Assembly: GCA_902793005.1 (NCBI GenBank)
Contig: CADBBQ010000005.1
Location: forward strand, 1 to 61,532
Source: an uncultured Pseudomonadota bacterium
GTDB lineage: Bacteria; Pseudomonadota; Alphaproteobacteria; Rs-D84
Direction: 5' to 3'
Length of the DNA stretch: 61,532 nucleotides
This document shows, piece after piece, positions 8,214-28,357 of this stretch (position 1 is the stretch's first letter; each line of letters starts with the position of its first letter). Both the position numbers and the translations under genes were made by a program. The notes under the pieces are model-generated. The model saw nothing but the letters and a program-made list of their open reading frames with translations, had not been told where the DNA came from and did not search any database.

Positions 8214-8651
8214 ATGAGGAACTCACTGTTTTTTGCTGTTTTTTTGGTGCTTGGCTTTGTCGGTGTGGTGAATGCGTTTCCTGCTGATAACAATACGTAT
8301 CCGAACTATGCATCTGGTAAGCCAACGACTGCGTCGGAATTAACGGTCAAAGATGCAAATGTTCGTGTTGCAACGACAAAGTATGTTGATACCCAGGCAG
8401 CGGGGTTGGAAAGTCCGATTAATACTTTGGCGAATGCGGCGACAACTGATAATACGACGGTTACAACCAATGGTAATGCGATTGGTGCGCCGGCAAGTGG
8501 AAATACGGCGGCAACGGGTTTGTTTGCCAATAAAATTGATGCGCCGACGGGGTCTGGCAATACGTGCCCATCGGGGCAGGTTTGTGGGTATATTTCTGCA
8601 AATGGAACCGGTGGAACAAAACAATGGGTTGTTATCCAAGGGGCGCCATAA
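8214..8651 (+). CDS. Small exported protein of unknown function
   Basis: 145 aa. Signal peptide MRNSLFFAVFLVLGFVGVVNA. RBS AGAGGAAG. VATTKYVDT motif and C-terminal CPSGQVCGY..KQWVVIQ module, both shared with the 30113-31939 protein. Confidence 0.75.
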   Translation: MRNSLFFAVFLVLGFVGVVNAFPADNNTYPNYASGKPTTASELTVKDANVRVATTKYVDTQAAGLESPINTLANAATTDNTTVTTNGNAIGAPASGNTAATGLFANKIDAPTGSGNTCPSGQVCGYISANGTGGTKQWVVIQGAP

Positions 8652-8821: not shown

Positions 8822-9850
8822 ATGATTGAAAAAAATTGGATGACTTTGATTAAGCCAAAAAAATTGAATATCAAGGTCGATGAAAAAAATCCTAATATTG
8901 CAACATTGGTTGCGGAACCATTGGAAAAAGGTTTCGGTTTGACATTGGGGACGGCGTTGCGTCGTGTTCTGTTGTCGTCGTTACAGGGTTGTGCGCCGGT
9001 GTATATCAAAATTGATGGTGTGCAACACGAATTTAGTTCTTTGCCTGGTGTTCGCGAAGATATTTCTGATATCATCTTGAATTTAAAGGGTGTATATTTC
9101 AAAGCAAATGCCGAGGGGCAACACAAGGCAACAATCAAGGCCAAGGGGCCTGTGGTTGTGACGGCCGGGATGATTGAAACATCCGCCGGGGTCGAGGTTA
9201 TGAATAAAGACGTCGAATTGTGCACATTGGACAAAGATGCAACATTTGATATGGAAATCACATTGGATTCGGGTCGTGGTTATGTTGCGGCAAATGCACA
9301 CGATACTGATTTGCCATTGGGTGTGATTCCGGTGGATTCTATTTTCTCGCCAATTTTGAATGTTTCGTCTGCGGTGTCCCAGACACGTGTTGGTCAATCA
9401 ACCGATTATGATAAATTGGAATTGACGGTTAAAACAAACGGTGCGGTTTCGCCCGAAGATGCAATCGCTTTTGCGGCACGCATTTTGACAGATCAATTGG
9501 TTGTGTTTATTAATTTTGAAGATCCGGCACAAATCAATGCACCGGCCGAAGAAGACAAGGCCAAAGATGCATTGCCGTTCGATCCAAAATTGTTGAAACA
9601 CGTTGATGAATTGGAATTGTCTGTTCGTGCAAATAACTGCTTGAAGAACGACAAAATCAATTGGTTGGGTGAATTGGTTCAAAAGACCGAGGCTGATATG
9701 TTGAAAACGCCAAACTTTGGCCGTAAATCTTTGAACGAAATCAAAATCCAATTGGAAGCCATGGGTCTGGGCCTGGGAATGGAAGTTCCTGGGTGGCCAC
9801 CAGAAAATATTGCGGAGTTGTCCAAGAAATACGAAGACCCATACAAATAA
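8822..9850 (+). CDS. rpoA: DNA-directed RNA polymerase subunit alpha
   Basis: 342 aa. [17 protein letters not shown] and the C-terminal-domain motif [18 protein letters not shown]. Confidence 0.97.
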
Positions 9851-9861
9851 AATAATTTCTG

Positions 9862-9955
9862 TGGGTTCTTGTCGTGATTGTTGTTCCTTATGTAGCATTT
9901 GTACACCGCGGAACAACAATCACTTCCAAATAACCTCACATAAATTATTTTCTTG
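9862..9955 (+). repeat. Structured intergenic repeat, copy 1 (14-bp covarying stem with conserved 22-nt loop)
   Basis: GTGATTGTTGTTCC (9874-9887) and GGAACAACAATCAC (9910-9923) are perfect reverse complements around TTATGTAGCATTTGTACACCGC. The element is homologous to the copies at 26645-26913. Confidence 0.85.
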
Positions 9956-10089
9956 AAAAGAGCGGATTTTCTGGAATAATACAGAAAACTGAAAATAAAT
10001 CCCATAATACTGGTATGAAAATATTAGGTTATGGTGTCTTAACAAATCCCCGGGGGACCTGGGGCAGAAACAAAAAATAGGAGTAATCA

Positions 10090-10659
10090 ATGAGACATAT
10101 GAAATCAGGTCGCACTTTTAATCGCGACACAAACGCGCGCAAAGCATTAATGATTGGTTTGGCGAAAAACTTAATTGAACGTGAACAAATTAAAACTACA
10201 TTGCCCAAGGCAAAAGATTTGCGCAGTGTTGTTGAAAAATTGATTACACGTGCCAAGGTTGATACTGTTGCCAACCGTCGTTTGATTGCGTCCGAATTGG
10301 GTAATGGCACATCTAAAACTGTTAACAAATTGTTTTCTGTTTTGGGACCACGTTATGCAAAACGCCCGGGTGGATATACACGCGTGTTAAAGGCTGGTTT
10401 CCGTTATGGCGATGCGGCACCGATGGCAATCATTGAATTGGTTGATCGCGATGTTAACGCAAAGAAAACAGTTGTGAAACCAGAAGCGGCAACAGAAGCC
10501 AAAGCAACAGAAGTTGTTGAAGAAGTGGCGGCCAAGGCTGAAAAAGCACCAAAAGCAACGGCGGCCAAAAAAACAGCCAAAGATGCAACCGCAACCAAAG
10601 CCAAAGCGACGGCTGCGAAGAAAACTGTTGCGGTTAAACGTCGTGCAACTGGTAAATAA
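10090..10659 (+). CDS. rplQ: 50S ribosomal protein L17 with Lys/Ala-rich C-terminal extension
   Basis: 189 aa. [20 protein letters not shown].. is typical of L17. The last roughly 65 aa are a K/A/T-rich tail. Confidence 0.95.
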
Positions 10660-10821: not shown

Positions 10822-13650
10822 ATGAAAAAAATATTTGCGTTTGGTTTAATTGGTGCGGTGTTGTATGGTGTGGCGGCTGATGCGGCGGCAACGCGTTCCA
10901 CGGCGCGGACACGGGCGCCGGCCGGACAAACAACAACAACGCAATCGGCAAATGCGCAAAGCGCGTCTGGGAATACGATGTCGGGGACGGCACGGCGTGC
11001 GCCACGTGCAGCGGTTGCACAACCAAAGCAGAATACGTCTGTACAAACCGCGGCGGCGCCGGCCCAACGTGTAAATGCGCGTGCGGCAACTACGCAAAAG
11101 GCAATAAATGTCGGAACAAAAATTACGGGTGCAACAACAAATACTGTCGTTAGTGAGGAGTGCAAAGAAAAATATTATGGGTGTATGGATTCTTTCTGTA
11201 TGTTGGATAATGCAAGCGGAGGCCGTTGTTTGTGCAGTGATCGCCATACGGAATTGGATAAAGTTTTGGACGAGATTCAAAAATTGGATGAACAAAGTTA
11301 TGCTATGGCGACGTCTGGTGTTGAACGCATAAATATGGGTGCGGATGCCGATGCAGTGCAAAGTATGGTTGATAAAATTACGGGTGATATTCAAAACCCA
11401 AATAAAAAAGATACTCGTGCGCGGACATTAAATTTGGATGCCTGGAATAATATTTATGAAACAGATGAAATGGATGTGTTTGGATCGGCGACAACGGATA
11501 TTACCAATCAAACGGGTGATGCGTTGCACGCGTCTGTATCTGATATGTGTATAAAACAGATTCCAGAATGTTCGGCAAATTTGTCTATGCTGAAATTGAT
11601 GTATGCACAGCAGATTAAATCTGATTGTACGGCATATGAAAACAGTTTGAAAAAACAACGTAATGAAAGTGCAAAAAAATTACAAACGGCCCAGACTGCT
11701 CTGCGCGAGGCTGCGTTGGAACAACATCAAAATGCAAATAAATATGATTTAGGTCAATGCACGATACGTTTTAAACAGTGTATGCAATCAACAGCCGGAT
11801 GTGGTGATGATTTTGCAAACTGTGCATCGGTTGTGGCAACGGAAAATGCCCAGACTCGTGTGGGGACAAAAAATAAAAAATCAAAAACATATGAAATTAA
11901 AACAGGTATGACATCGATTTCTATTGCGGCGTCAACGTACGATATTTTGATATCGAAAAAGCCAATGTGTGATGGTGTTACAAAGCAATGTGTGTCTGTC
12001 CAGGACCAAGTTTGGGATACTTTCCTGCGCGAGGTTGCACCAACGTTGAAATCGGCGGAATTGGTTGCGGAATCAAATATTCGTATGAATTGTATTGCGA
12101 ATATTTCATCGTGTTTCCAACAAGCGTGTAAAGATAATATGGATCCAAATGATCCGGATGGTTCGTATGATATGTGTTTGTCGCGTCCACAAACAATGCG
12201 GTCTTTATGTCGGGTGCAAATCGACCCGTGTGTTGCGGCCGAACCACAAATTTTGGATTTTGTGTATGCGCGACTGGCATCTATGCGTGTTGATGCGTGC
12301 ACGACCGAGGTTAAAGATTGTTTAACAGATGAAAATCGTTGTGGGTCTGATTATTCAAAATGTATCGGTTTGGATTTGCAATCTGTGCGTGATATGTGTC
12401 CGTTGGATAAATTGGTTGCCTGTCAAAAAGATGGCCAGGCGGCTGCGTGGGAAACAATTGATAATATCGTCCAAGGAATTTATCTGGATATTGATAATTC
12501 TTTGTTGACATCGTGTACGAATGCGGTTAATGCGAAAATGATGGAAATTTGTGGCAGTGAAACCGAGTGCTTGGCATTTGATGATGATGAGTATATTGGT
12601 ACCGACAGTTTGACCGGTTATAAAGCGCGTGATGGCAGTTTTGTTATCGAAGGTTTATTGTCGTTTGGTAATGTTAAAATCAAAGAAGCAACAAGTAGTG
12701 CAGATGATGTGAAGTTTAGTAAATATGAATTGGATATTTCTGGATATTCGGACAAGATTAAAAATGTTGATGGAACATCGGCGGTCAAAGATCGTGTGCT
12801 GTCCAGTTTGCAGTCTGTCCAAAACAAGATAAATCAAAAGATTGCTTTGTTGACGTCTGATGCGAAAATCAGTATGTGTGTGAACGGTCGTGATATGCGT
12901 CAGATTCGTGGAACGCGTCAAAATCGTTCAACCCAGGATACGGCACGTTTTCCGCATTTGTTGGATTCACAAATTACGGCAATAATAGATGCTGGTTTGG
13001 ACAAGGCAAATGAAAATTATTCTAAAAAATATGATGAATTGTTTGCCAAGGCTATTGAACAACAAAGCGATGAAAATAAATCTGCGATGTGTGCGGCAAT
13101 GGCGTCGTCGGGTGGAATAAAAATAAATAAATCTGAAAATAATGTAAAATCTCGTGGATTTTTGGGTTTGTTGGAAAAAGCAATGCAAAGCACCCGAAAT
13201 GTGGCGCAGTTATCAAAAGCTGATTTTGCACAAAATGATTTGAGTACTGGCGGTGCCAGTGTTGGGGATTATGATGTGCGCATTGTGTTGGATGGTATGA
13301 CGATGAATAATTTGTTGAATTTGCAATCGTCTGGCAAGGGTGAATTTATCCAAAAGGATGGTTCAGGTAATATGTTGGGTAAAATTACTATGAGTGCGGT
13401 GTATTCTGCGGATACAAATACTTGCACATTGACCACGACAACAACAATGTGTGAAAATATCAAAGATGTTTATAATACGTCCGAGGTTGAATCTTGTGGT
13501 GGTGGTGGATTCTTTACATTTGATGGATGTGGTGGTTTCAGTTTGTTTGGTGGCAGTGGCACCAGTACGACGCCCTCATCTACATTTGCGGGAACGGTGT
13601 GTACCAAAATGGCTCAGCCAGTTATAACAACCCAAGAAATCAAGATGTAA
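10822..13650 (+). CDS. Exported cysteine-rich protein, family member A (942 aa)
   Basis: RBS AGGAGA. Signal peptide MKKIFAFGLIGAVLYGVAADA. T/R/A-rich low-complexity region. Cys knot CKEKYYGCMDSFCMLDNASGGRCLCSD. Modules CGDDFANC and CGSDYSKC. Colinear with the 56948-59410 protein. Confidence 0.85.
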   Translation: MKKIFAFGLIGAVLYGVAADAAATRSTARTRAPAGQTTTTQSANAQSASGNTMSGTARRAPRAAVAQPKQNTSVQTAAAPAQRVNARAATTQKAINVGTKITGATTNTVVSEECKEKYYGCMDSFCMLDNASGGRCLCSDRHTELDKVLDEIQKLDEQSYAMATSGVERINMGADADAVQSMVDKITGDIQNPNKKDTRARTLNLDAWNNIYETDEMDVFGSATTDITNQTGDALHASVSDMCIKQIPECSANLSMLKLMYAQQIKSDCTAYENSLKKQRNESAKKLQTAQTALREAALEQHQNANKYDLGQCTIRFKQCMQSTAGCGDDFANCASVVATENAQTRVGTKNKKSKTYEIKTGMTSISIAASTYDILISKKPMCDGVTKQCVSVQDQVWDTFLREVAPTLKSAELVAESNIRMNCIANISSCFQQACKDNMDPNDPDGSYDMCLSRPQTMRSLCRVQIDPCVAAEPQILDFVYARLASMRVDACTTEVKDCLTDENRCGSDYSKCIGLDLQSVRDMCPLDKLVACQKDGQAAAWETIDNIVQGIYLDIDNSLLTSCTNAVNAKMMEICGSETECLAFDDDEYIGTDSLTGYKARDGSFVIEGLLSFGNVKIKEATSSADDVKFSKYELDISGYSDKIKNVDGTSAVKDRVLSSLQSVQNKINQKIALLTSDAKISMCVNGRDMRQIRGTRQNRSTQDTARFPHLLDSQITAIIDAGLDKANENYSKKYDELFAKAIEQQSDENKSAMCAAMASSGGIKINKSENNVKSRGFLGLLEKAMQSTRNVAQLSKADFAQNDLSTGGASVGDYDVRIVLDGMTMNNLLNLQSSGKGEFIQKDGSGNMLGKITMSAVYSADTNTCTLTTTTTMCENIKDVYNTSEVESCGGGGFFTFDGCGGFSLFGGSGTSTTPSSTFAGTVCTKMAQPVITTQEIKM

Positions 13651-26202: not shown

Positions 26203-26571
26203 TTATTTTGCGGTTTTCGCGGAAACTTTTTTTACCAAACGGGCCGAACGATTTGCCTTGCGCACAGGTTTTTTCGCAGGCGTTGAAGTTTTGCCCATCT
26301 TTTTTTCAATTGCGCGTTTGATTGCCGCCATATCATCGGTCAAGCGGGATACAGGTTTTGCCATTACATATCCGTCCAAACCGCCGTGTTTGGTCAATGT
26401 ACGCAGACCCGCGGTCGAAATACGCAATGCAAAATCGCGCCCCAGAATATCACTGTGGAATTTTAATTTTTGTAAATTTGGTAAAAATGTACGTTTAGTC
26501 TTGCGTTCCGAGTGGGACACATTGTGACCAACAGTTGTTTTTTTACCAGTAACATCACATACACGTGGCAT
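26203..26571 (-). CDS. rpmB: 50S ribosomal protein L28 with basic C-terminal extension
   Basis: 122 aa. MPRVCDVTGKKTTVGHNVSHSERKTKRTFLPNLQ is typical of L28. K/A-rich tail. Confidence 0.93.
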   Translation of the reverse strand: MPRVCDVTGKKTTVGHNVSHSERKTKRTFLPNLQKLKFHSDILGRDFALRISTAGLRTLTKHGGLDGYVMAKPVSRLTDDMAAIKRAIEKKMGKTSTPAKKPVRKANRSARLVKKVSAKTAK

Positions 26572-26644
26572 CTTATATATCCTTTAATTGCAGGGCATAA
26601 TTTAGAACAAAAATCCACAAAAGTCAAGTATAAATTAAATTTTA

Positions 26645-26913
26645 TGGATTCTTGTCGTGGTCGACGTTCCTTATGTACCATTTGTACACCGCGGAACATC
26701 GACCACTTCCAATAATCTCATAAAATTTAATTTCTTGGCGAGGGCTTTGGATTCTTGTCGCAAAAGTCAAACCTTATGTAGCATTTGTACACTGCGGTTT
26801 GCCTTTTGCTTCCAATAATCTCATAAAATTTAATTTCTTGGCCGAGGACCTGGATTCTTGTCGCGATTGGCGTTCCTTATGTAGGTCAACTACACTGCGG
26901 TTTGTCTTGTGAA
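26645..26913 (+). repeat. Tandem array (about 2.6 units, roughly 103-nt period) of the structured intergenic repeat
   Basis: Units start near 26645, 26748 and 26850. The flanks GGATTCTTGTCG and CTTCCAATAATCTCATAAAATTTAATTTCTTGG and the loop TTATGTA(C/G)CATTTGTACAC(C/T)GC are conserved. The stem arms differ between units but remain complementary. The last unit is degenerate. Confidence 0.88.
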
Positions 26914-26914
26914 A

Positions 26915-28357
26915 CTACCCAAGGTGTGCCGTATCTAATAAATCAGATACCTTTTTGACGGGGGTGAATGTCGTGTTTGGAACGGATACAAATATCGTTA
27001 TCCATCCCGCCATTGCCCCGTTCCATAAACCGGGACGTTCCATTGCGCGCAAGTCGCGTCCATTATATGATTTTTCGGATATGAATCCGGTTTGTTCGTC
27101 GATAAATTTTGTTAAATCGAATTTTTTGCCGTCTATATCGCGGGTGCTGCATACTAAATCAACCGGGTTAAAGTGGGTCGATTGGTTCATAATTTCGCGC
27201 GCAGACGGGGCAATTTGGCTGGATTCTGTGATTTGCAGGTGTTCGCCACGTGCGTCGCGAACCCAAAATGGGCCACCGCCCGGTGCACCGGTGTTTTTTA
27301 CCATACCGCATATACGCACAGGGCGATTTAATATGTTTAATAACGTGTCGCGTGTTGGGTTTTGTGGCAATGTAATGCATAATTGATGTGTTATAAAATC
27401 TTGTAAGTTAGTTTCGTTATATGTGTTATTTTGTAAATCGGTTATAAATTTTTTGATTTGGTTTTTGGTTTTAATCAAAATGCCGCCTAATAATTTTTTA
27501 TATCGGATTGTGTCAGCGCGATGTTCGTCGTTTGTTATGTTGTCTATGTTTTTTATAAATATTATGTCCGAATCGATTTTGTTCAGGTTTTCTATTAATG
27601 CGCCGTGTCCCGATGGGCGAAAAACCAATCTCCCATTGTTGTCACGAAAAGGCGTGTTATCAAAATTAACCGCGATTGTGTCGGTGCTGGGCGATTGGGT
27701 TGATGTAGTGATGTGAAATTTGACATTATATGTTTTGGAATATTTTGGCAAAATTTCATCCATTAAATTGTTAAATTTTTCAACGTGTTCCGGTGACAGT
27801 GTGAAATGTATGTGGACCGTGTCGCGTGTTGTGGCGTATTGGGTGCCTTCGATTAAATGTTCGGCGGCGGCGGTGCGGAATTCGTTTTTGTATTTATGAA
27901 ATTTAATTAGGGCCTTGGGTAAATTGCCCAGGTTTAATTTGTCCGCCCCCAGCATTCCCGATACTATGTCGTGTGCGGTTGGGGTGGGGGGTAAAAATTG
28001 TTTTAAATCATCATAAAAAGCGAATCGGTCGATGTTGTTAATAACGCTGGTTGTTGTTGGATTTAATTCGCCGGTGGACATAAATTCAAATAAATCGCGA
28101 AACATTCGTGTTGCGGCGCCTGATGCCGGAACGAATTTAGTAATGGTGTAATTATCGTGTGTGTCGTCGTAAATTTTTATAAATTCGTTTATTGCGTTTT
28201 CGTCGTATTCAAAAATTCCGTCACCAATTGTCGCAGGGCGTGTGATATCTGCAAAAGGAAATCCGGATTTAAAATGTTCAATTTGTTGATTGACGGCGTC
28301 CAATGTTAATCCGTGCTGTTCGATTTGTTTTATATCTTGGTCAGAAAATTTTATCAT
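26915..28357 (-). CDS. DUF4301-family protein (nucleotidyltransferase-like)
   Basis: 480 aa. The N-terminus MIKFSDQDIKQIEQHGL....QI..F..G and FVPASGAATRMF recall DUF4301. The assignment is from memory only. Confidence 0.6.
   Translation of the reverse strand: MIKFSDQDIKQIEQHGLTLDAVNQQIEHFKSGFPFADITRPATIGDGIFEYDENAINEFIKIYDDTHDNYTITKFVPASGAATRMFRDLFEFMSTGELNPTTTSVINNIDRFAFYDDLKQFLPPTPTAHDIVSGMLGADKLNLGNLPKALIKFHKYKNEFRTAAAEHLIEGTQYATTRDTVHIHFTLSPEHVEKFNNLMDEILPKYSKTYNVKFHITTSTQSPSTDTIAVNFDNTPFRDNNGRLVFRPSGHGALIENLNKIDSDIIFIKNIDNITNDEHRADTIRYKKLLGGILIKTKNQIKKFITDLQNNTYNETNLQDFITHQLCITLPQNPTRDTLLNILNRPVRICGMVKNTGAPGGGPFWVRDARGEHLQITESSQIAPSAREIMNQSTHFNPVDLVCSTRDIDGKKFDLTKFIDEQTGFISEKSYNGRDLRAMERPGLWNGAMAGWITIFVSVPNTTFTPVKKVSDLLDTAHLG

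Follow-up and report, generated by a model that had tools for sequence, protein, structure and literature searches.

What kind of element is the long hairpin that begins at the stop codon of rpoA and recurs in a short array beside rpmB in contig CADBBQ010000005.1 (GCA_902793005.1), from the lineage Rs-D84? The 61,532 nt of this contig that we analyzed are called the window below, and all coordinates are counted from its first letter. An earlier note on the window had described, in the spacer between rpoA and rplQ, a ~94-nt element with complementary 14-mers around a 22-nt loop, had counted three further copies near rpmB, and had read their divergent but compensating stems as a sign of selection on a folded RNA or single-stranded DNA. 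Our own reading, to which we assign a probability of roughly 0.45, is that the hairpin belongs to a family, not described before, of DNA hairpins that are mobile or have been so recently, ~105-125 nt in length, similar to dimers of repetitive extragenic palindromes (REPs) or to foldback miniature inverted-repeat transposable elements (MITEs). REP, BIME, REPIN, and MITE repeats are common in bacteria, and their spread and role are poorly understood. In this family the conservation is inverted, with a constant loop and arms that change in step, which directly indicates where recognition must lie.

Anatomy and covariation of the hairpin

A covariance model built from 64 distinct copies of the element was run on the window and returned exactly three intact copies (9849-9955, 26632-26737, and 26748-26840; 72.4, 67.8, and 67.7 bits) and one degenerate copy (26851-26914; 18.2 bits). 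Their parts are as follows.

9849-9955, + strand: copy 1 (type i), in the rpoA-rplQ spacer; hairpin at 9849-9951 followed by a CTTG tail; fold -38.1 kcal/mol, z -7.7; 72.4 bits
9848-9850, + strand: TAA stop codon of rpoA, inside which the basal stem of copy 1 starts, by sequence and fold
9849-9858, + strand: left arm of the basal stem P1, AAAATAATTT, pairing in the fold with AAATTATTTT at 9942-9951; ends conserved in non-orthologous copies
9874-9887, + strand: left arm of the stem P3, GTGATTGTTGTTCC, perfectly complementary to 9910-9923; covariation at all 14 pairs across the family
9888-9909, + strand: apex TTATGTAGCATTTGTACACCGC with mini-stem TGTA/TACA; no matches in shuffled sequence; invariant columns in 64 copies
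9910-9923, + strand: right arm of P3, GGAACAACAATCAC, complementary to the left arm and covarying with it
26632-26747, + strand: array unit 1, complete, type i; hairpin at 26632-26733; fold -42.1 kcal/mol, z -7.7; 67.8 bits
26657-26670 and 26693-26706, + strand: arms of array unit 1 around its apex (26671-26692); a CTTG tail and a 10-nt G-rich linker follow
26748-26850, + strand: array unit 2, without the left basal-stem arm; arms at 26760-26773 and 26796-26809, apex at 26774-26795; 67.7 bits
26851-26914, + strand: array unit 3, degenerate or chimeric; class-B apex TTATGTAGGTCAACTACACTGC at 26877-26898; non-pairing arms; 18.2 bits; fold z -0.35

An intact element folds into one hairpin of ~105 nt, with an energy of -38 to -42 kcal/mol and a z of about -7.7, which from base to tip consists of the AT-rich stem P1, the stem P2 with an internal loop, the 14-bp variable stem P3, and the 22-nt conserved apex. 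The 239-nt length of the spacer and the perfect complementarity of the two 14-mers flanking the apex, as given in the earlier note, are both borne out by the sequence, but a length of ~94 nt is too short, as the hairpin runs from 9849 to 9951 with its base overlapping the rpoA TAA. The apex 22-mer occurs again at 26671-26692 and 26774-26795 with one mismatch each, compared to no matches in 100 shuffles, and the flank motifs of copy 1 are present again in further window copies. The apex of the last array unit has changed to the class-B form. This last unit is no equal member of the set: its arms are non-complementary, it has no right flank, and its score is 18 bits, where the others reach 68-72. 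Its right arm is like that of unit 2, and it breaks off beside the stop codon (26915-26917) of a minus-strand DUF4301 gene. The arms in the array had been called almost entirely different from those of copy 1, which is overstated: relative to the 9874 arm, only 4 of 14 positions are changed in GTGGTCGACGTTCC, and 9 in GCAAAAGTCAAACC. There is one stem mismatch in each of these two array copies (C.A and T.C).

Within the apex lies a mini-stem of 4-5 bp (TGTA/TACA), with an unpaired TTA and CYRC on its flanks. The class-B variant, TGTAG-GNNNA-CTACA, has a compensated G:C pair and a different loop while keeping the mini-stem, and at the level of sequence such variants confirm the predicted mini-stem.

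In P3, all 14 pairs change on both sides across the 64 distinct copies, and pairing is kept in 88% of cells. The score for covariation reaches 0.77, compared to 0.18 for shuffled and 0.13-0.27 for slid controls; the arms are therefore constrained to pair, and the earlier rejection of plain duplication stands. The pairing does not, however, appear specific to RNA. Structured RNAs contain G.U far above A.C, whereas the oppositions over whole arms here number 135 G.T and 109 A.C, and in 76 of 91 copies the more stable fold is that of the complementary strand. Given these near-even counts and the better antisense folding, we read the covariation as maintenance of a DNA palindrome, which explains it at least as well as selection on RNA does. 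The same counts were considered as a test of which strand folds and were set aside, because the parts of the hairpin disagree (G.T:A.C of 54:23 in the upper stem alone, favoring the sense strand, and 61:73 in the middle) and because a replication-linked C-to-T bias would itself raise G.T on the sense strand. An apparent wobble reversal at the antisense rpmB locus (0 G.T versus 7 C.A) was likewise rejected, since the same C.A is inherited in type i copies at sense loci.

An exact-pattern scan of species-representative genomes, which required the apex, returned 94 loci, nearly all of them in gut or rumen metagenome-assembled genomes (MAGs) labelled Candidatus Enterousia or uncultured Alphaproteobacteria; one, in MAG RUG14746, is nearly identical to the window. 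The scan with a covariance model that the earlier note had suggested then gave 135 matches in 672 kb of loci from ~60 Candidatus Enterousia/Rs-D84 genomes. Genomes of the order Rs-D84 are mostly <1 Mbp (PMC12306168). Single genomes contain several subfamilies that differ in their arms and outer parts and have the apex in common, and the metagenomes hold more copies, including some from distant, GC-richer lineages with quite different arms and the same apex. In these GC-richer lineages the unrelated arms reach ~40 bp, and the apex takes the variant form TCATGTA.C.T.TGTACAC. Hairpins bearing the apex were also found between rpsL and rpsG in a Burkholderiales MAG, in an Alysiella MAG, and after a tRNA-Leu gene in a soil Pseudomonadota MAG. 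The motif is thus borne on a hairpin tip in Alpha- and Betaproteobacteria as well as in GC-richer metagenome lineages. It is near-invariant across the 135 copies, with 19 of 22 columns invariant in the 64-copy set, which was retrieved by exact apex match, and it is conserved at three loci (L209, L211, and L151) even though the arms pair poorly there.

Searches of known families did not recover the element. At the gathering score, Rfam matched only three tRNAs in the window and not the element, and in permissive E-value mode the element gave generic miRNA-hairpin noise only, on both strands. A degenerate apex pattern had nine matches in the viral contigs scanned, none with hairpin arms, and we regard these as chance matches. 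BLAST against plasmids yielded no meaningful match to the element. In human-gut metagenome contigs (L106, L119, L130, L134, L140, and others), the recurring but unrelated context ...CCTCCTCTTGCCTT-TCATGTACCATTTGTACAC-TTATCTGTGTC... matches the apex pattern without hairpin arms and, judging from its sequence, probably resembles it by chance in some common gut organism or element. A further observation concerns the type iii elements of MAG RGIG3039 (L003, L018, L039, L081, L086, and L094) and of L027 and L049, at whose 3' end a tail hairpin, CCCCAGTGCAAGGGG, is conserved, with G/T-rich sequence after it; in type iii arrays this tail hairpin stands in place of the next unit's left outer part.

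Gene ends, replication, and turnover

The two loci in the window are flanked by the following genes.

8822-9850, + strand: rpoA, upstream of copy 1 and co-oriented with it; Pfam RNA_pol_A_bac, RNA_pol_A_CTD, and RNA_pol_L
10090-10659, + strand: rplQ (ribosomal protein L17), downstream of copy 1; Pfam Ribosomal_L17
26203-26571, - strand: rpmB (ribosomal protein L28), with the array upstream of it and antisense to it; Pfam Ribosomal_L28
26915-28357, - strand: DUF4301 gene; its 3' end adjoins the antisense array; Pfam DUF4301, E 2e-190

The ribosomal-protein neighbors to which the earlier note had drawn attention are incidental, as copies also follow dnaN, dnaA, rho, ftsK, groEL, fabF, efp, yebC, the PBP1A gene, and a tRNA gene; further upstream genes, besides rpoA, are murG, rpsR, rpsL, and rpsM. 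What the loci share is their position at gene ends. Where a long open reading frame (ORF) ends within 60 nt, it is co-oriented with the element in 38 of 39 cases, and the apex starts 28-51 nt past the stop codon. Flanking genes are arranged same/same in 46 contexts and convergently in 13, with almost no truly divergent context, and among the loci examined no copy was seen inside a coding region beyond its last few codons. The stop codon in the close cases, counted by eye, is TAA in 36 of 37, versus 79% TAA among window ORFs of at least 120 aa. Non-orthologous copies have the conserved ends AAATnAAnTATAAT... (AAATnAA...) and ...TTnATTT, and a TAA is therefore part of the element itself. The last codons of fabF and of ftsK form the left basal arm at those loci, and a synonymous change from AAA to AAG in fabF is compensated by T-to-C in the right arm.

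The position of copy 1 inside an operon is not isolated, as copies also lie between rpsR and rplI (where orthologous copies are kept in 20 species), between rpsL and rpsG, and between rpsM and rpsK. Separate canonical intrinsic terminators often follow the element, and at copy 1 itself no terminator-like site, defined as a GC-rich stem directly before a U-tract, was found. From the operon positions and the separate terminators we conclude that the element is not itself a terminator. It is co-transcribed with the upstream gene: metatranscriptome contigs from runs X30 (9722-10050), X34, X46, and X48 extend from rpoA through the element, as would be expected of a feature in an operon spacer. These contigs answer in part the call of the earlier note for transcript data, since they establish read-through but carry neither strand nor ends nor reliable depth.

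Some smaller structures accompany these loci. A small hairpin, TTTGGG-N4-7-CCCTAACTT, is conserved in some 20 species (L011, L012, L024, L047, and others) 20-60 nt past the rpsR-rplI element and ~30 nt before rplI, just upstream of its ribosome-binding site (AAGGACAGATAAAATG); by its sequence and position it may be an rplI leader or regulatory structure, apart from the repeat. After efp and dnaN (L013, L017, L073, L082, L092, and others) there is a terminator-like hairpin, AACGGCGC-ATCT-GCGCCGTT, followed by a T-run, and the motif GCGCATCT is common to this hairpin and the type ii right half. The far right arm of some copies has two possible partners, the local terminator-like sequence and the distant left arm. 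Direct repeats with ATCT occur on the two arms, with identity at 9 of 9 or 13 of 14 positions in some copies, and were considered as a target duplication left by an inner module inserted in a terminator loop; although suggestive, this idea was dropped, as the repeats are inseparable from a conserved internal-loop motif.

The element also has a preferred direction with respect to replication. The + strand of the window is G-rich throughout, with a skew of about +0.2, falling to +0.02-0.09 where genes lie on the minus strand; from this uniform skew, the whole window belongs to a single replichore in which + is the leading strand. It is the G-rich strand that serves as the lagging-strand template. 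The element is on the + strand at both window loci, and the rpmB array is antisense to both of its neighbors, rpmB and the DUF4301 gene. Copies lie on the G-rich strand in 92 of 98 cases over all loci and in 27 of 29 independent metagenome copies (119 of 127 in total), and the skew of the exceptions is near 0. No copies were found in the lagging-strand sense, though 19 of 50 window ORFs are on that strand. Antisense to their flanking genes yet in agreement with the skew are the rpmB array (in four species), L008, and perhaps L208.

Gain and loss of the element can be followed at two sites. The site downstream of efp is filled in nine species, by different subtypes and by single or double units, and is empty in six relatives; the EF-P of these six shares 91.5-98% identity with that of the query locus. 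An RNA-derived contig of run X30 joins 9850 to 10072 via 52 unrelated bases and is an empty allele of the rpoA-rplQ site. In MAG RGIG3039, which also contains arrays, near-identical copies at several loci point to recent spread. At the rpoA-rplQ site of a related strain (run X34, a sheep-gut metatranscriptome) there is a second tandem unit, in which a 36-nt linker, TGTTGCAAGGAGTGAATTGTTAAATGTTGCCGGTTT, leads back into the apex; array length at this site therefore varies between strains.

Arrays have periods of 86-104 nt, and the linkers between their units are G-rich or A-rich, with conserved tails in some subfamilies. The array L019 reads [A-left, apex, A-right][B-left, apex, A-right][B-left, apex, B-right], which is exactly the outcome expected from unequal exchange at the common apex. 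The earlier note had held that copies with non-complementary arms would count against a folded element; ~15% of the apex-bearing units, chimeras or truncated units, do have non-pairing arms. Losses are polar, with ~15 units without the left part versus 2 without the right part, and L029 contains three successive right halves, each beginning inside the apex and preceded by A-runs. Slippage in palindromic arrays and polar copying both fit this polarity.

Known repeats and alternative explanations

Palindromic repeats at gene ends are a kind of element that is already known, and the behavior of this family is REP- or MITE-like, although no described family has a matching sequence. The distance of REPs from ORF 3' ends is <20 bp, their termini can provide stop codons, and the spacers of head-to-head REP dimers are conserved (PMC3733652). 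Similar to REP, BIME, and REPIN repeats, the elements described here are short, extragenic, non-coding palindromes within ~20 bp of an ORF 3' end that sometimes supply the stop codon (PMC3733652), lie between unidirectional or convergent genes, are transcribed together with the gene before them, persist by vertical descent, and occur in arrays; their inverted halves make one large hairpin around a spacer that, in the known repeats also, can be conserved. In contrast, REPIN stems are conserved and the spacer is more variable, whereas here the 22-nt center is near-invariant across bacterial classes and the arms vary. A REP unit is a GC-rich hairpin of 20-40 bp with an unpaired terminal GTAG or CGTC tag, unlike the ~105-nt hairpin seen here, whose arms are not small GC-rich REP hairpins, which has no such terminal tag, and in which GTAG occurs only inside the apex. 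REPs usually exceed 100 copies per genome, compared to four units in the 61.5-kb window, which is not a whole-genome count, and, in contrast to REPIN-RAYT systems, no REP-associated tyrosine transposase (RAYT) flanks any copy examined. The CGTC-tagged REPs (Di Nocera et al. 2013) are likewise found in Alphaproteobacteria, have no dedicated transposase known, and are built as tag-stem-loop-stem-tail, to which the type i core corresponds as TGTC, stem, loop, stem, and TTCCA; TGTC and CCA are listed among their tag and tail variants, though only type i shows them here. Their stem is 8-9 bp and their loop 4-5 nt, against 14 bp and 22 nt, and the unit here is embedded in a ~105-nt hairpin with an outer stem.

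The foldback MITEs of Neisseria known as Correia or NEMIS elements are ~100-150 bp long, with long inverted repeats that form a hairpin in the transcript, and they are gene-adjacent and polymorphic for presence or absence. The present family resembles them in size, in long inverted repeats that fold in the transcript, in gene-adjacent insertion, and in presence/absence polymorphism, which was seen at the efp site and, with run X30, at rpoA-rplQ; inverted ends (AAATnAA.../...TTnATTT) are also present. It differs in that Correia inverted repeats are conserved and accompanied by a TA duplication, whereas here the arms vary and the comparison of filled and empty sites defines no clear duplication. 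To our knowledge, strict replication orientation has not been reported for Correia elements. Rickettsia palindromic elements (RPE) are 100-150 bp long and lie in frame within genes. We know of only one well-known conserved loop with differing stems, namely the HUH Rep nick sites of rolling-circle plasmids, geminiviruses, and circoviruses, where the loop is presented on extruded or single-stranded DNA. As in those sites, the loop sequence here is constant and the stem differs between relatives; those sites, however, are origins of single replicons rather than dispersed chromosomal repeats, the apex matches no nick motif, and no Rep gene was found. Integron attC and Xer dif sites have conserved recombinase-binding arms, the opposite of a conserved center with varying arms, and only TTATGT resembles a XerD arm, by eye against the dif consensus. 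IS200/IS605 insertion sequences are oriented with replication and need lagging-strand single-stranded DNA (PMC3971601). The family shares with them its orientation relative to the replication fork and, as we would suggest by analogy, a reliance on folded single-stranded hairpins of the lagging-strand template (PMC3971601), but IS200/IS605 elements have two distinct subterminal hairpins and TnpA/TnpB, while here there is one hairpin with no gene and no TnpA homologue nearby. They insert 3' of a fixed tetra- or pentanucleotide; here TAA stands at the 5' boundary in 36 of 37 cases and is also part of the conserved A-rich end. The family itself, the inverted conservation, the spread of the apex across bacterial classes, and the abundance in genomes of <1 Mb appear to be undescribed.

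How such a DNA hairpin might persist and spread can be sketched as follows. The family has spread in the <1 Mb genomes of Candidatus Enterousia/Rs-D84 and is sporadic in other Proteobacteria; its A-rich 5' end with TAA overlaps or supplies a stop codon, and the upstream mRNA includes the element. The sense strand, almost always the lagging-strand template, is transiently single-stranded at the replication fork and can then fold, displaying the 22-nt apex with its mini-stem of 4-5 bp flanked by TYA and CYRC. We infer that mobility passes through this single-stranded DNA and that the apex would be recognized or cleaved by a trans-acting protein responsible for copying or maintaining the element, most likely a single-strand-DNA enzyme of the HUH/RAYT kind, for which the arms need only pair. 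Complementarity of the arms would be kept by hairpin processes at the DNA level (intra-element conversion or template switching) and not by selection on RNA.

Several observations weigh against this proposal, of which the enzyme is the weakest link. The REP-associated transposase that the earlier note had suggested looking for did not appear: tblastn with IS200 TnpA and YafM sequences found no Y1/RAYT homologue in 817 kb and 761 kb of element-bearing DNA, which are not whole genomes. No transposase lies beside any copy, with every nearest neighbor examined being a housekeeping gene, and no autonomous insertion sequence related to the element was found. Neither target-site duplications nor sharp ends could be defined by comparing filled and empty sites at efp and rpoA-rplQ. 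The conservation of the apex in part reflects the search itself, as the scan required it, and the separation of replication from transcription rests on two to three independent loci, because leading-strand genes dominate. Finally, orthologous copies persist in many species with the apex intact and the stem paired, including the compensatory change opposite the fabF codons, which looks like selection per locus and not like pure selfish turnover.

The main and serious rival, which we regard as possible, though distinctly less probable than the DNA hairpin, is a cis-acting RNA element of mRNA 3' untranslated regions and intercistronic spacers that blocks 3' exonucleases or serves as an RNase III/E site, with the apex bound by a conserved RNA-binding protein and the basal stem at the stop codon coupling folding to translation termination. 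Such a role would suit the start at a co-oriented gene's stop codon in 38 of 39 close cases, the presence inside operons that a terminator would harm (rpoA-rplQ, rpsR-rplI, rpsL-rpsG, and rpsM-rpsK), the frequent position between a stop codon and a separate intrinsic terminator, and the metatranscriptome contigs that span rpoA through the element, as well as the covariation of the basal stem with fabF codons, the rpsR-rplI orthologs retained in 20 species, and a mini-stem with a compensated G:C pair and GNNNA loop. It fits poorly, however, with the lack of a G.U over A.C excess and the better folding of the antisense strand, with an rpmB array and L008 that are antisense to their neighbors, and with the absence of copies in the lagging-strand sense despite the 19 of 50 window ORFs there. 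Empty alleles in close relatives imply that the element is dispensable, its arrays, chimeras, and half-units are typical of repeat DNA, and no Rfam family matches it. An improbable alternative is that the apex is a duplex site of the host, like those in BIMEs or RIPs, for a nucleoid or topology protein (gyrase, IHF/HU, or similar) after highly transcribed genes, with arms that promote cruciform extrusion. E. coli BIMEs bind gyrase and IHF, and copies do follow highly expressed genes. The apex conserved over poorly pairing arms (L209, L211, and L151) and the conserved spacers of head-to-head REP dimers (PMC3733652) also speak for a duplex site, whereas the compensated mini-stem points to a single-stranded fold, strict strand orientation would be unexpected, arm covariation would not be required, and by eye the apex matches no binding consensus for IHF, DnaA, dif, gyrase, SlmA, or NrdR. 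Least probable of all, and in our opinion very much so, is a retro-mobile, SINE-like element whose transcript 3' hairpin or apex is read by a reverse transcriptase and copied into the lagging-strand template, which would predict fixed 3' ends, variable 5' truncation, and homopolymer-rich linkers. The ~15 units without the 5' part versus 2 without the 3' part, the three right halves of L029 that start inside the apex after A-runs, and the G-rich or A-rich linkers agree with this, and endonuclease-less group II introns retrohome with the same replication bias. Nevertheless, slippage or unequal crossing-over in palindromic arrays could produce the truncations equally well (L019 is exactly what unequal exchange at the apex would give), the linkers are conserved tails in some subfamilies, strand-symmetric pairing favors a DNA palindrome, and no reverse transcriptase gene was present among the nearest neighbors examined, although no search was aimed at one.

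Turning again to the DNA hairpin and what might read its tip, we compared the apex by eye with known consensuses. None was convincing among dif/XerD, the DnaA box, IHF, Tus-Ter, gyrase, SlmA, NrdR, and LexA boxes, nor among HUH nick motifs, 16S rRNA 1390-1406, tRNA loops, and promoter hexamers. A broader idea, which we think rather unlikely, is that the apex, T(T/C)ATGTA-N-C(A/G)T(T/C)TGTACAC (19-22 nt), could be a widespread and undescribed recognition motif on the tip of a hairpin otherwise free to vary, read by a conserved protein such as a domesticated HUH-type single-strand-DNA enzyme or an RNA-binding factor. If true, this would be a REP-like system with its specificity in the loop and not the stem, surviving in genomes below 1 Mb. 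The apex is common to very different bacteria, and the family thrives in streamlined genomes of <1 Mb and ~90% coding density (the window is 91.5% coding under translation table 11), where useless DNA is normally lost. Should a partner protein be found, the family would offer a tractable new system of hairpin-DNA or hairpin-RNA recognition and a marker of replication direction for uncultured gut Alphaproteobacteria; should none exist, it would be a clear case of a DNA palindrome maintaining its own symmetry.

Other features of the window

At 9953-9980, the CTTGAAA tail of copy 1 gives a -35-like TTGAAA 16 nt before a TG-extended -10-like AATAAT (10 of 12 matches). Judged from these letters, the tail may be part of an rplQ promoter, and the number of such sites is not above chance. 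The 942-aa ORF after rplQ is an example of the secreted-looking proteins, large or small and rich in Cys or Ala/Thr/Asn, that adjoin elements in the window (10822-13650 and 8214-8651) and at L061 and L021/L086. Among non-overlapping window ORFs of at least 60 aa, the stop codons are TAA in 48, TAG in 13, and TGA in 3, and the three TGA ORFs look spurious, being antisense within the ribosomal-protein operon. Recoding of UGA as the source of this pattern was rejected, given that 91.5% is already coding under table 11 and nothing is gained with table 4; the pattern looks like avoidance of UGA and not like recoding.

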